Shown in pieces: positions 11,099 through 14,237 of a DNA stretch of 14,237 nt (positions are counted from its first letter, which is position 1; every line of letters starts with the position of its first letter). Source of the DNA: Candidatus Aenigmatarchaeota archaeon. GTDB taxonomy: Archaea; Aenigmatarchaeota; Aenigmatarchaeia; QMZP01. Where the stretch lies: NCBI GenBank assembly GCA_039091855.1, contig JAWCLA010000016.1, forward strand, positions 1 through 14,237, read 5' to 3'. Both the position numbers and the translations under genes were made by a program. A model generated the notes under the pieces. It worked only from the letters and a program-made list of their open reading frames with translations, ran no database searches and was not told the DNA's origin.

Positions 11099-11313
11099 AG
11101 TGCCGCTTCAATTATTGAAAAATACGGTGAGCTATCCTTTTGACTAGGACCGGTCGGGGATTGGTGGCAGTGAGCTGAACATCTCGGAAAACCTTGATGC
11201 TTACACCCCTGCTCCATCAACCCTGTCGTCTACAGGACCCTCCTGCCCTCACCGACAGTCGCCTGCCAGCTTGAGCAATGACTGCCTATTTTTGGGGACG
11301 GCTTCACGCTTAG

Positions 11314-11429
11314 TTAGGCCTGGAACAAGGCAATGAATTATAAGCTGCAACTGAAGTGCAACTTTCTCTTTATGGAAGCTTCCCATTTCCAACATTCCTT
11401 TCTACGTATTAAAAAGCCTTTTTTCCAGA
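11314..11429 (-). other. 23S BHB intron, 116 nt (after ~U2754, H97)
   Basis: Helix AGGC/GCCU, bulges AU|U and AA|C; splicing restores GGCAUCUAAGC. Confidence 0.88.
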
Positions 11430-11473
11430 ATGCCTTCAGCGCTTATCCGTTACGGCTTAGCTACTCGGCGTGC

Positions 11474-11508
11474 TTTCATCGAAAGACAGAGTTTTAACTG
11501 TCAATCGC
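11474..11508 (-). other. 23S BHB intron, 35 nt (H96, ~2703); carries the shared motif
   Basis: Helix UCAU/AUGA, bulges AG|G and AA|G, both flanks paired. Confidence 0.8.
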
Positions 11509-11678
11509 CTATGACAACCGATACACCAGAGGCCGCGACTCCCCGTTCCTTTCGTACTAAAGGAATCTTCCCCTCAGGCAATCCGCACCTTCAGTAGATA
11601 AAGACCGTACTGGCTCGCACCGTACTTAACCCAGCTAAGGTGACTCTTTGATGGGTGAACACCCCCACCCTTGGGCGC

Positions 11679-11735
11679 TTGCAGAAGCCCTTCTTTTAGA
11701 AAAGAAAAGGCTTTGGGTTCAAAAAGAAAGGCTTA
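11679..11735 (-). other. 23S BHB intron, 57 nt (after ~A2534, H91 loop)
   Basis: Helix GCAG/CUGC, bulges CA|U and AA|G; splicing restores GUGCAGCAGCGCCCAAGG. Confidence 0.88.
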
Positions 11736-11792
11736 TGCTGCACGCCCAGGAAGAGCCCAGCCGACGGCGGAGAAGCAACGAACGCGGTCGAT

Positions 11793-11822
11793 TTGTCCTG
11801 ATTATTTTGAAATATATATCAT
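11793..11822 (-). other. 23S BHB intron, 30 nt (after ~U2477, H89 loop)
   Basis: Helix GUCC/GGAC, bulges AU|A and AA|A; splicing restores GAGAGUCCAUAUCGAC. Confidence 0.9.
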
Positions 11823-11887
11823 ATGGACTCTCGCGCGCCACGACTCCATTATCCCCGTGGTAGCTTTTCTGACAGGTCCGGCCCCCA

Positions 11888-11952
11888 TTCTTATCGAAAG
11901 ACGACATCATTCATTAACGATTCAACCCTTATTACGCGAGCCGTCAATCGAG
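11888..11952 (-). other. 23S relaxed-BHB intron, ~65 nt (H88, ~2407); carries the shared motif
   Basis: Helix AUUA/UAAG (3 of 4 bp), bulges AU|C and AA|U; boundaries uncertain by about 1 nt. Confidence 0.7.
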
Positions 11953-12003
11953 ATTAATGAGGCACGGAAGATCGCTAGACCACGCTTTCGCGTTAGGACC
12001 CCT

Positions 12004-12072
12004 TTTAACCATCCTATCTTCTTTCCGTCAACGCTTTCTTGTGAAAGCGAAAGCTTCCGGAAGAAAGGGTTG
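12004..12072 (-). other. 23S relaxed-BHB intron, 69 nt (H86 loop, ~2361)
   Basis: Helix UGAC/GUUA, bulges AA|C and AA|A; exon-side stem GGACCUU/GGGGUCC; intron-side flank weak. Confidence 0.78.
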
Positions 12073-12123
12073 TTGTCAAAGGTCCTATCAGACCTCCTTT
12101 TGCTCTTACGCTCTTCTCCAGAT

Positions 12124-12189
12124 GTTCAGGGGAAAGACAGCTACCAATAACAAAAAACTGTTAATGATGTGATAAGCCATCAATCCACA
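12124..12189 (-). other. 23S BHB intron, 66 nt (after ~2310, H84 loop); carries the shared motif
   Basis: Helix UCAG/CUGA, bulges AA|U and AC|A; splicing restores GGUCAGAAAUCUGG. Confidence 0.88.
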
Positions 12190-12227
12190 TTCTGACCTGG
12201 ATGAGGAGATCTTTGGGCACCTCTGAT

Positions 12228-12257
12228 TTCAATGGATTGCAAAACCCTTTGCAATCG
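12228..12257 (-). other. 23S relaxed (BHL-like) intron, 30 nt (H81 loop, ~2272)
   Basis: Imperfect helix CAAG/AUUG with cuts AG|C and AA|A; 9-bp stem GAUUGCAAA/UUUGCAAUC; removal restores the expected loop length. Confidence 0.7.
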
Positions 12258-12312
12258 CTCTTGTCAGAGGTGTACCGCCCCAGTCAAACTGCCCACCTGA
12301 CGCTGTTCCCCA

Positions 12313-12347
12313 CTCTCCTCGAAAGACGTATAGAAACGTCAAACGAA
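12313..12347 (-). other. 23S BHB intron, 35 nt (H79 region); carries the shared motif
   Basis: Helix CUCU/GGAG, bulges UG|U and AG|U; an alternative register shifted by 1 nt is possible. Lies in a variable region. Confidence 0.68.
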
Positions 12348-12625
12348 CAAGAGGTAAGCAATATGAAGAAGATAGGGTGGTGTTACATTGGCGCCTTAGC
12401 AGTGACTGACGCCACTGCTGCATTGCTCCCACCTACTCTATACGATCCCCTTCATATCACAACATCAAGCTGCAGTAAAGTTCAACGGGGTCTTCTCGTC
12501 CCACTGAAGGTCTCCTGAATATGCACAGGACCATTAAGTTCACTGGGTATCGGCCCGGGACAGCGGGGATCTCGTTAAGCCATTGATGCAGGTCGACAAT
12601 TAATCGACAAGGGATTACGCTACCT

Positions 12626-12678
12626 GTATCCAGAAACGGCGTTTTATCACCGCCTTTCGGCTCAAGTGACCATTTCTT
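12626..12678 (-). other. 23S BHB intron, 53 nt (after A1927)
   Basis: Helix GUCU/GGAU, bulges UA|A and AC|A, both flanks paired; splicing restores CUUAAGGUAGCG. Confidence 0.92.
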
Positions 12679-12693
12679 TAAGACGGTCAGAGT

Positions 12694-12728
12694 TTGCGGA
12701 GGAAAACAACTTTAAAGCTGTTTTACCC
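12694..12728 (-). other. 23S BHB intron, 35 nt (after ~A1912, H69 loop)
   Basis: Helix GCGG/CCGC, bulges UA|G and AA|A; splicing restores GGCGGUAACUCUG. Confidence 0.9.
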
Positions 12729-12841
12729 TACCGCCGCCGTTTACCAGGGCTTTGCTCCGTTGTACCGGAGTTTAACCGACTGGCACTGGGCAGGCCTCAG
12801 GAGCTATACGTATCGTTTCCGATCAGCAGCCCCCTAAGTTT

Positions 12842-12887
12842 ATTAACGACATTCTTTCTATTTGAGGTCTTTCTTTGAAAGAAGTCA
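12842..12887 (-). other. 23S BHB intron, 46 nt (after ~A1784, H65 loop)
   Basis: Helix UAAC/GUUA, bulges AA|U and AU|A, both flanks paired; splicing restores CUGUUUAACAAAAAC. Confidence 0.9.
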
Positions 12888-12961
12888 TTGTTAAACAGTC
12901 GTACCCCCCTTGTAACTGCGACCTACTGATCCCAGCTGAGCTGAGGCAGTAGGCACCCCTT

Positions 12962-13011
12962 TTCGGCCGAAGAAGGCACTCTTACTATTTTCGCTTCGCC
13001 TTCATTCTCGT
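12962..13011 (-). other. 23S BHB intron, 50 nt (after ~1699, H62)
   Basis: Helix CGGU/GCCG, bulges AU|A and AA|A, both flanks paired; splicing restores CUUCGGUAUAAGGGG. Confidence 0.9.
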
Positions 13012-13033
13012 ATACCGAAGATACGGGGCCAAT

Positions 13034-13937
13034 TTAGGCTGGATATAGAATCAAAATGAAATATTAAGTTTTCCCTCAACAAAACTATTAAGTTCTTTTT
13101 TATTGTTTATTCGCTTTATGCATTCTAACAGAAAATTGTTGGCTTCCTCAATTGATTTAAAATTTTTATTAATCCAATTGGATTTTTCTCTTAGCATACC
13201 ACAGAAAATCATCATTTTCACAACATCGTTTTTTGTGAAACCATTGAACAATTTGCCTCTTCGAACTTTTGACTCTTCAAGGAATCCCACAGTTTCATGG
13301 AATTTTTTTATTTCATACGAATTCTTTATGATGAATCCTGTCTCTTTTTCGATAGGGTTCAATCCAACAATTTTAAATATTTTACGCATCTGTTTTTTTA
13401 TTTTGGGATTAGTACACCCAATTTTGATGCCCATATGCAATTGTATTATATTCCTATCTTTTCGCTTGTAGACAGAAAATTCCGGACCACCATCACAAGT
13501 TGCATAGTATCTGAGGAATTCCTTTGAATTTTCTATTGAAAAGCACTCTTTAGGTATTCTTGTGGATGGGTATTGTAAATCTTCTGATTTTTCAGGATTC
13601 TTTGGATGGATATTAAATGCCCTCATTCTGAAAGATGGTGTAAATTCGGTTAATAGATTCACAAGCTTTTTTGAATTAACCTTTGCCCTGTAGGAGTTCG
13701 CATGTTTGTTAATCTTCCAGTTGAGCTTAATATCGGCGATTTCATTAAACTCCTCTATCAACCTCATTACAACATCTTTGTCTTCCGTAAATGAAACTGT
13801 ATATCTTTTTAGATCTACTGAACCATCTGATAGAAGCACAGCAATTAGTTTTAATATTTGCATCATAAGCCCCGTACTATATTCAGTTTGCTTATTTATA
13901 AATACGGGGCTTACTGGACGAATGATTCTATATCCAT
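13034..13937 (-). mobile_element. 904-nt archaeal BHB rRNA intron carrying a homing endonuclease (after ~A1677)
   Basis: Perfect 14-bp terminal inverted repeat (13040-13053 / 13923-13936); helix AGGC/GCCU; bulges AA|A and AA|A; splicing restores AGGCAAAUUGG; AT-rich ORF inside. Confidence 0.93.
13051..13866 (-). CDS. Double-motif LAGLIDADG homing endonuclease (intron-encoded)
   Basis: Motif 1 LIAVLLSDGS and motif 2 FLRYYATCDGG about 110 aa apart, both keeping the catalytic Asp; SKKLVNLL linker; Lys/Ile-rich. Confidence 0.9.
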   Translation of the reverse strand: MMQILKLIAVLLSDGSVDLKRYTVSFTEDKDVVMRLIEEFNEIADIKLNWKINKHANSYRAKVNSKKLVNLLTEFTPSFRMRAFNIHPKNPEKSEDLQYPSTRIPKECFSIENSKEFLRYYATCDGGPEFSVYKRKDRNIIQLHMGIKIGCTNPKIKKQMRKIFKIVGLNPIEKETGFIIKNSYEIKKFHETVGFLEESKVRRGKLFNGFTKNDVVKMMIFCGMLREKSNWINKNFKSIEEANNFLLECIKRINNKKELNSFVEGKLNISF

Positions 13938-14043
13938 TTGCCTAATTCCCTGGACCGATTTCTCCCAACACACCTTCCCCTTCTCAGGGAGGGGCACCAG
14001 TAACGGTTCTCGGTACGAGTGGGAGATTCCTTACCGGTTTCCT

Positions 14044-14080
14044 GTGTGAGAAAAGGCATGTAGCCAGCCATGCCCTTTCC
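14044..14080 (-). other. 23S BHB intron, 37 nt (after ~A1571)
   Basis: Helix GUGA/UCAC, bulges AA|G and AC|A; 11-bp stem GAAAGGGCAUG/CAUGCCUUUUC; splicing restores CCGUGAAAAGG. Confidence 0.92.
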
Positions 14081-14237
14081 TTTCACGGGCTCCAGGAATC
14101 AGCAGAACCTGCATAACAGGCCATTCCCAAATTTGCCTGTTTCTCACCATTATGGTACTCCACAGGCTTGAAAGGTTAGATGCACAGAGTGCACTCTACC
14201 TATCCCGAAGCGTCAGAAACCAGTCCTGCGTTGCCGC

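Follow-up and report, generated by a model that had tools for sequence, protein, structure and literature searches.

A hairpin module shared by mini-introns of the 23S rRNA gene and intergenic repeats in an Aenigmatarchaeota genome

Four mini-introns without open reading frames (ORFs) in the 23S rRNA gene of a Candidatus Aenigmatarchaeota archaeon (assembly GCA_039091855.1, contig JAWCLA010000016.1) carry a common stem motif, with UUGAY near the 5' end and GUCUUUC near the 3' end. The recurrence of this motif is beyond chance, and the motif is not specific to the mini-introns, as it is also present in an intergenic repeat, in tRNA introns and in a 16S rRNA gene. It is probably the conserved base of a lineage-specific, duplicative hairpin module resembling the repetitive extragenic palindromic (REP) sequences of bacteria, kept in stable-RNA genes only where the flanking bases give rise to a bulge-helix-bulge (BHB) structure that the splicing endonuclease can remove. 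The four mini-introns are most likely copies of this module, whose hairpin forms the inner helix of the BHB and whose flanking bases pair with the end of the 5' exon. The existence of the family, its copy numbers and contexts, the base-pair covariation and the turnover among congeners are established.

The window analysed is the entire contig of 14,237 nucleotides (C8) of the source genome, designated G000 (689 kb, 38 contigs, 84% complete, 42% G+C). Among the four congeners compared with it are G001, G003 and G004; the labels i3 to i14 denote introns in the G000 23S rRNA gene.

A hairpin module within introns and between genes

As listed in Table 1, the four motif introns are i6, i8, i10 and i13, all of them located in terminal loops of rRNA helices according to the Rfam structure lines. 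The preliminary description, prepared from the sequence of the window alone, had placed the motif strings in these introns correctly, and its statement that the two halves pair around a tandem U-U inside the BHB was confirmed: the order of pairs is C-G, G-C, A-U, U.U, U.U, G-C, A-U, C-G, with three U.U in i6. Pairing begins right after the first bulge, the motif being the base of the BHB inner helix, and the hairpin lies 0–2 nt from the BHB bulge in each of the four introns. The BHB search gave a helix between the end of the 5' exon and the 3' end of the intron with 4/4 pairs in i13 and i8 and 3/4 in i10. The 4/4 helix of i6 was obtained by direct reading, as it fell outside the best two results of the search for that site. 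The exon-pairing 4-mers are site-specific (AUGA, UAAG, CUGA and AGGA), in agreement with the differences described earlier. The intron ends proposed there fit the BHB, and for i8 and i10 they coincide with the ends of indels relative to intron-less congeners.

The motif, defined as UUGAY within the first 16 nt plus GUCUUUC within the last 18 nt, is present in 4 of the 12 ORF-less insertions. Shuffling, suggested initially as a check on chance recurrence, supported the observation: among 5000 dinucleotide shuffles, 4993 sets contained no motif intron, seven contained one (1/12) and none contained more. In a motif-blind version of the test, which counted how many introns at most have a common 5' 6-mer plus a common 3' 6-mer, of any letters, the observed value was 3 against a shuffle maximum of 2. 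The motif is missing from the eight remaining ORF-less BHB insertions in the gene, and its interpretation as a general splicing signal was rejected on this ground. No features of group I or homing-endonuclease introns were found in the four introns (35–66 nt), with only LSU rRNA reaching the Rfam gathering score. A box C/D sRNA or K-turn was also dismissed, since on direct reading the 3' strand has no GA facing the 5' strand; the UAAUGAUG words of the longer hairpins are the plain complement of the other arm. No Rfam family was matched at E≤1 by the hairpin loci, with the exception of tRNA and a single weak snoRNA match.

A strict pattern search of the G000 genome revealed four additional hairpins outside the rRNA, and relaxed searches revealed many more. 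Twenty-nine copies were aligned (the 4 G000 introns, 15 G000 intergenic copies and 10 from relatives). Their common layout is (GAUU)GAC(G)-variable stem and loop-(C)GUCUUUC(C), with GAC/GUC and the UUUC tail invariant or nearly so. Stem pairing was observed in 87.8% of cells, compared to 30–60% in slid controls, and there were 28 double-change cells, against 7.1±3.3 after shuffling (0 of 500 shuffles reached the observed value). The hairpin is under selection for pairing.

A covariance model (R1) built from this alignment identified 35 distinct loci in G000 at E<1e-3, about half of which are training sequences; 33 lie outside the rRNA, and the two short introns were recovered solely with the filters off. 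All 38 copies that could be placed are intergenic or overlap only short ORFs (76–122 aa), and certain copies are situated at contig ends. An intergenic look-alike of i8 was found at C37:14234-14294. The possibility that this copy interrupts the EF-1alpha gene was rejected, as the gene is intact and located about 330 nt downstream. Four identical hairpin copies lie inside an element bounded by inverted repeats.

A covariance-model scan of this and related genomes, as envisaged in the preliminary description, gave matches in G000, its congeners, tRNA introns and 16S. Each of the five genus genomes contains 15–40 R1 matches (15–37 per congener, n=4). Beyond the genus, 9 out of the 20 same-family genomes and 5 out of 16 from other families of the order contained matches, mostly in small numbers; 22 of the 41 related genomes gave no R1 match at E≤1e-3. 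Mapping of the spliced G000 rRNA onto the 23S loci of 19 relatives revealed mini-introns at both shared and private sites, including family hairpins at eight sites of the 3' part of the gene in G000, G001, G003, G017, G019 and G028 (Table 1). The earlier proposal that one family occupies different sites without a homing-endonuclease ORF is upheld, and the part of it that confined the family to mini-introns is not, since 33 of the 35 loci lie outside the rRNA.

The family also occurs in other RNA genes. G014 has matches inside the 16S gene and in the 5' part of the 23S gene; the G000 assembly, when searched, contained no 16S gene. The hairpin lies inside the span of three tRNA genes, two in G001 and one in G003, and in the G001 tRNA-Arg(CCU) gene it occupies the anticodon-loop position. 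At three tRNA genes (Table 1) the hairpin ends 6–8 nt 5' of the mature tRNA 5' end and its A/T-rich loop lies about 27–28 nt upstream of +1; such a copy may carry a promoter in its loop or represent a leader hairpin. Two copies were found 66 and 92 nt downstream of two other tRNA genes, on the same strand.

Likeness between the family introns is confined to the hairpin base, except that for some copies it covers the whole of a long form with extended arms. This long form is represented by i8, the copy at C37:14234-14294, the G003 intron at site 508, the G001 tRNA-Arg intron and a spacer of contig C6. The hairpin of the G017 intron at site 508 and a G000 hairpin located 5' of a tRNA are alike at 33 of 39 positions, loop included. 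At the i8 site of G003 (L018) the base and flanks are kept, and the 20 nt that form the hairpin top are identical to a hairpin within an intergenic module of G000 (C36, ~14450-14480). Therefore, tops would be exchanged while bases stay, and entire hairpin tops appear to have been swapped between elements.

Intron turnover was determined from an alignment of G000, G003, G001 and G004 (the last one partial) and is included in Table 1. The ends of the indels are identical to the BHB-predicted ends for i3, i8 and i10, and within 1–2 nt of them for i13. The i6 site holds a family-like intron in G003 and an unrelated 74-nt intron in G001, the alignment containing no congener that lacks an intron there. 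Introns lacking in G000 occur in G001 and G004. All five species have a conserved TATA-like box at the tRNA-Arg locus, where G000 alone has the upstream hairpin, as an additional ~47 nt; the introns of this tRNA gene vary or are missing between the five species. The G000 intergenic hairpins at this and two more orthologous loci were found in 0/4, 0/4 and 0/2 congeners. Locus C38:2350-3350 had no match in congeners, and synteny was broken at the C22 locus. A BLAST search of 41 genomes with whole introns i8 and i10 was uninformative: being too insensitive for divergent 65-nt elements, it missed the known G000 look-alike.

Explanations for the recurrence of the hairpin

The findings would be explained if the module were copied to new DNA sites. 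Intergenic copies would then persist freely, and those in rRNA and tRNA genes would persist only in loop positions whose flanks make a BHB, where the host splicing endonuclease and RtcB ligase would excise the hairpin from the transcript. G000 encodes both activities (two tRNA_int_endo matches and RtcB), and the introns are presumably removed by splicing. Terminal loops may bear an unspliced hairpin for a time, like an expansion segment, and the exon-pairing 4-mer could arise meanwhile. Since the hairpin abuts the bulge in all family introns, seeding of introns by the module, or its travelling with the BHB frame, is favoured over settling in older introns; nested replacement probably also happens, as the exchange of tops suggests. 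The shifting of intergenic copies between congeners fits copying rather than a conserved function. We infer that the module moves as DNA and that it seeds introns rather than only settling in old ones. A fuller proposition is put forward tentatively: by landing in loops of stable RNAs, supplying the inner helix and being cut out by the tRNA splicing endonuclease, a mobile hairpin of REP-like type would give rise to new BHB introns in the rRNA and tRNA genes of archaea.

Several observations weigh against copying of the module as DNA. Firstly, all 14 full-length matches to rRNA loci at E<1e-3 are in the rRNA sense (both strands were searched, and 13 of the 14 are training sequences of the model), and so are the three tRNA-intron copies. 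Such sense-only orientation in RNA genes is unexpected for random DNA insertion and needs selection or a strand-specific mechanism. Secondly, the site-specific exon-pairing 4-mer cannot come from the module, which leaves a working BHB at the birth of the intron unexplained. Thirdly, neither target-site duplications nor terminal inverted repeats, the features expected of a miniature inverted-repeat transposable element (MITE), are visible around the hairpin alone. Fourthly, mismatches in the stem comprise seven G.U and nine A.C, and the missing excess of G.U favours neither an RNA nor a DNA hairpin. In addition, no RNA run retrieved in the run search exceeded 7–8% of sequence words, and those words were conserved rRNA.

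The enzymes point the same way, as none that would mobilise the hairpin was identified. G000 contains two IS200-like Y1_Tnp genes (C37:7094-7453 and C37:9001-9324, both on the minus strand; locus L037), one of which contains an internal TAG. The second gene has a family hairpin on the opposite strand, about 100 nt from its start, and none on its other side; a REPtron, a Y1 transposase gene flanked by repeats, is not formed by this single, one-sided copy. Y1_Tnp is found in 0/4 congeners and does not track hairpin counts across the 41 relatives. Mobilisation by IS200 or REP-associated tyrosine transposase (RAYT) enzymes is not supported, given this distribution and flanking. A TnpB-like domain was found in none of the five genus genomes.

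The strict sense orientation in RNA genes and the placement close before tRNA 5' ends, which also count against the DNA-copying account, are in keeping with a function that has a direction or with a mechanism specific to one strand. Hence a role in protein binding, or one linked to promoters, stays a serious rival, albeit an unlikely one. According to it, the hairpin is a selected element working in one direction, either an RNA hairpin bound by a protein on pre-rRNA, pre-tRNA and mRNA leaders or a promoter-framing palindrome, and introns would carry it because the factor helps in their folding, in their splicing or in what becomes of the RNA after excision. The 14/14 rRNA and 3/3 tRNA-intron copies in sense, the conserved U.U pairs and UUUCC tail, the hairpins ending 6–8 nt 5' of three tRNA genes with A/T-rich loops about 27–28 nt upstream of +1, and the same-strand copies following two others are all in its favour, as is the co-orientation of 23 of the 34 intergenic copies that have a downstream neighbour with that neighbour. 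Against it stand the lack of copies at orthologous loci of congeners (0/4, 0/4 and 0/2), the 22 relatives without a match, and the eight ORF-less BHB insertions in this rRNA that do not have the motif. The promoter version meets further difficulties: TTTAAA/TTTATA peaks at -30 to -21 of G000 start codons and ATAACA shows no peak, so that the commonest loop word, AUAACAAA, is not the TATA signal of this genome, and at the tRNA-Arg locus the TATA box is already present in all five species, the hairpin of G000 being additional. A promoter reading of AUAACAAA may hold for the tRNA-proximal copies alone.

Spread at the RNA level, in which excised introns or hairpin-bearing leaders would be re-inserted by a reversed endonuclease/ligase reaction and then copied into DNA, accounts for the sense orientation in all stable-RNA contexts and for copies in places that are likely transcribed (leaders, trailers and introns). 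It is nevertheless improbable. No reverse transcriptase was found in G000 (84% complete) or in three of the four congeners, one of the five genus genomes having one; the intergenic copies, on direct reading, have no BHB flanks; and the four identical copies in an insertion sequence (IS)-like element with terminal inverted repeats represent spread as DNA. Least probable of all, and already disfavoured by the sequences, is the absence of any spread, with old, vertically inherited introns whose inner helices converged as the local endonuclease or rRNA folding favoured one sequence: the i13 site, with family hairpins of differing tops in four genomes of three genera, fits such descent with compensatory change, but the 33 copies outside the rRNA, the loop likeness at 33 of 39 positions between an intron and an intergenic copy, the patchy occurrence of i8, i10 and i13 in congeners with closely similar exons, and the eight introns without the motif in the same rRNA stay unexplained.

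Other insertions in the rRNA locus and associated repeats

Comparison with the Rfam model revealed 12 ORF-less insertions of 30–116 nt and one of about 955 nt in the 3' part of the 23S gene. All small insertions are located in terminal loops of rRNA helices. An unrestricted BHB scan was uninformative (3061 candidates), and the search was hence limited to the Rfam insertion sites, where a BHB with a 4-bp central helix and two 3-nt bulges was found for nearly all insertions. With its 13 BHB-type insertions, the gene has an intron load that is unusually dense for rRNA and changes fast; most sites vary in presence, length or content within the genus (window 11142-14237, minus strand; loci L018-L036). 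The 271-aa ORF of the large insertion matches a LAGLIDADG-like domain weakly (19.5 bits, under the Pfam cut-off of 22.5).

Table 1. Features of the 23S rRNA locus in the window, sites of family hairpins in spliced 23S coordinates, and hairpins located next to tRNA genes. Motifs are given in the rRNA sense.
Feature	Position	Strand	Structure and content	Occurrence in genomes
23S rRNA gene, 3' part	11142..14237	-	Rfam LSU_rRNA_archaea model 1548-2987; truncated by contig end	
Large insertion, ~955 nt	12969..13923	-	271-aa ORF, 13866-13051	
i3, 46 nt	12842..12887	-	BHB; motif lacking	G000 only; absent from G003, G001
i4, 35 nt	12694..12728	-	Motif lacking	Site holds family hairpins in G003, G017, G028
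i5, 53 nt	12626..12678	-	BHB; motif lacking	G000 only among aligned genus loci; absent from G003, G001
i6, 35 nt	12313..12347	-	Core 12344-12320, three U.U; motif CGUUUGAC .. GUCUUUCG inside 12345-12320; BHB UCUU-guu-..-AGGA-gag; 22.5 bits	
i7, 32 nt	12227..12258	-	5' half CGAUUG kept, 3' half fully complementary CAAUCC; relaxed BHB	
i8, 66 nt	12124..12189	-	Long-form hairpin, core 12185-12131; motif GGAUUGAU .. GUCUUUCC inside 12186-12131; BHB UCAG-aau-..-CUGA-aca; 26.3 bits	G000, G003 (top differs); absent from G001, exactly 66 nt
i9, ~69-71 nt	12003..12073	-	Member of second recurrent family, CCCUUU..AAAGCGUUNACGGAAA	
i10, 65 nt	11888..11952	-	Hairpin core 11949-11895; motif CGAUUGAC .. GUCUUUCG inside 11950-11895; BHB helix 3/4 pairs; 27.7 bits	G000, G001 (39-nt short form); absent from G003, exactly 65 nt
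i11, 30 nt	11793..11822	-	BHB; motif lacking	G003, G001 insertions at site ~159 nt longer
i12, 57 nt	11679..11735	-	BHB; motif lacking	G000 only; absent from G003, G001
i13, 35 nt	11474..11508	-	Motif CGAUUGAC 11507-11500 .. GUCUUUCG 11487-11480; BHB UCAU-agg-[hairpin 11507-11480]-AUGA-aag, in rRNA-helix terminal loop; 24.7 bits	G000, G003 (hairpin top differs); absent from G001, G004
i14, 116 nt	11314..11429	-	BHB; motif lacking	G000, G001, G004; absent from G003
23S site	508 (spliced)		Family hairpin	G003, G017, G028
23S site	~650 (spliced)		Family hairpin	G001
23S site	801 (spliced)		Family hairpin	G000, G003
23S site	855 (spliced)		Family hairpin; degenerate form in G000	G001, G000
23S site	892 (spliced)		Family hairpin	G000, G003
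23S site	992 (spliced)		Family hairpin	G000, G001
23S site	1284 (spliced)		Family hairpin	G000, G003, G017, G019
23S site	1328 (spliced)		Family hairpin	G019
tRNA-proximal hairpin	C10:5228-5266	-		G000
tRNA-proximal hairpin	C12:43858-43897	+		G000
tRNA-proximal hairpin	C28 (locus L058)			G001

The intron of G001 at the i7 site has the motif form GAUUGAC..GUCCUUC (28.4 bits). The insertion at 12004-12072 had initially been regarded as similar to the motif in reversed order. This likeness is weak, and the intron (i9) belongs instead to a second family, a hairpin between CCCUUU and AAAGCGUUNACGGAAA, represented by 11 copies at several sites in the rRNA loci of seven relatives, all in the rRNA sense (L018, L020, L021, L025, L027, L029 and L032). 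Outside the rRNA, G000 contains three copies of this second family (C1:10540, C35:26024 and C36:27074).

The DNA runs matching best in the run search are hot-spring metagenomes. Four DNA runs were compared, with contigs that were mostly rRNA of other organisms; contigs of run X4 omit exactly 12842-12887 (i3).

The inverted-repeat-bounded element carrying family hairpins is an IS-like element of 480–740 bp with inverted repeats GACTGTTAAC/GTTAACAGTC. Its three copies (C37:14049-14528, C14:8256-8995, and C1:1-191 plus C1:62346-62628, spanning the ends of contig C1) each contain one or two family hairpins, and for the C14 copy an IS240-type DDE match was obtained that is weak (17.4 bits; cut-off, 27). 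After many of the intergenic hairpins comes CUGUCACAAGGCGAA and then at least one unit of the type GGAAG-variable hairpin-CUUCUCCGU, often just 5' of the starts of unrelated genes. Units of this kind are located at C36:14100-14900, C38:18000-18800, C23:1500-2400, C33:7600-8300, C37:3800-4500, C4:8500-9300 and C6:9200-10000 (loci L003-L011), and no Rfam match was obtained for them.

The two splicing-endonuclease-like genes were found at C12:5584-5856 (+) and C19:768-1283 (+), one in a 204-aa frame and the other in a 418-aa frame with two endonuclease domains; two hairpin copies lie 49–95 nt downstream of the second gene.

ARAGORN detected one tRNA gene in G000 by default and four with introns allowed, and no Rfam tRNA match reached the cut-off in a screen of the whole genome. 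The visible tRNA genes contain several introns, including, in at least three genes, a T-loop intron built on a hairpin of the type GAGCCUUCUUUC-CCGA-AAGAAGGC. The 5S rRNA gene is also interrupted (C1:37832-38000, minus strand; locus L042). One of its insertions has the words ACCGCUUUUU..AAAAAGCGGUGGAGCA, as in the hairpin-flanking repeats at C7:9250-9350 and C21:1-120, and the second starts with GACAGCUUGG, resembling the 5' arm of the hairpin family. In G002, a stretch matching RNase P RNA weakly (24.3 bits; gathering score, 84) was found at C119:2700-3175 (locus L064), just downstream of the 3' end of the 23S gene, with a family hairpin between them.

Relation to known introns and palindromic repeats

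tRNA intron families of Thermoproteales have been read as a sign of large-scale intron transposition (Fujishima et al. 2010, as cited in PMC4090602 and 10.64898/2026.10.13.758758). In the available portions of the citing texts, how the introns transpose is described as unknown, with gain presumed to take place at the DNA level (PMC4090602), and for Asgard tRNA introns no tested arrival route is held to explain the pattern in general (10.64898/2026.10.13.758758). As in the Thermoproteales families, intron sequence recurs here at different sites and genes of one genome, with four G000 sites sharing 8+8 letters. In contrast to those families, as described in these portions, the present one covers 23S, 16S and tRNA genes of a DPANN-type lineage, and its core is also a free intergenic repeat (33 loci).

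The short (<50 nt) hairpin introns in rRNA genes of Thermoproteales are likewise ORF-less and retain a BHB, and some sites hold hairpin introns only (Jay and Inskeep 2015, PMC4496867). The excerpt of that paper ascribes their spread to co-conversion with a neighbouring homing-endonuclease intron and describes no shared module, whereas here at least four dispersed sites share one, more than 600 nt from the nearest intron that has an ORF.

Bacterial REP/RPE sequences are, in the available part of their description, short imperfect palindromes with a conserved end, a short unpaired tail, species-specific abundance and occasional intragenic insertion, a dedicated transposase being absent for their CGTC class (Di Nocera et al. 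2013, PMC3733652). The archaeal hairpins resemble them, so described, in being short palindromes of many copies with variable stems and loops, a conserved end and a short tail. They differ in the tag: in place of the unpaired GTAG or CGTC of the bacterial repeats, they have the paired GAC/GUC and the 3' UUUC tail as their invariant letters, without GTAG and with CGUC inside the stem; U.U pairs, a UUUCC tail and BHB-framed copies in RNA genes are further differences.

The family may also be set beside the introners of eukaryotes, transposon-like repeats that create spliceosomal introns. With introners, and presumably here, a repeated non-coding element is tolerated in genes as the host splicing machinery removes it. 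Unlike introners, the module is associated with a protein endonuclease and a BHB rather than the spliceosome, is much smaller, and has no transposase or target-site duplication identified. A literature search of main texts returned no description of such a hairpin module in DPANN archaea. As far as the sources reach, the new element is that a single module links BHB introns with REP-like intergenic repeats, in a DPANN-type archaeon and in both rRNA and tRNA genes.

There is also a practical side, since standard tools barely detect tRNA genes in this genome and interrupted rRNA genes are easily missed or misassembled.

The route by which BHB introns of archaea arrive at new sites is still an open question, and the recurrence described here suggests that new introns may stem from a copy-and-paste hairpin. 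Should a REP-like hairpin indeed create BHB introns, it would have a cheap way of spreading through essential genes, would represent an archaeal counterpart of eukaryotic introners, and would offer a concrete mechanism for the intron transposition described in Thermoproteales. The genus shows the module in three states, free between genes, beside tRNA genes and as the core of rRNA and tRNA introns, and gains and losses are visible between congeners, which makes the source and birth of introns directly testable.

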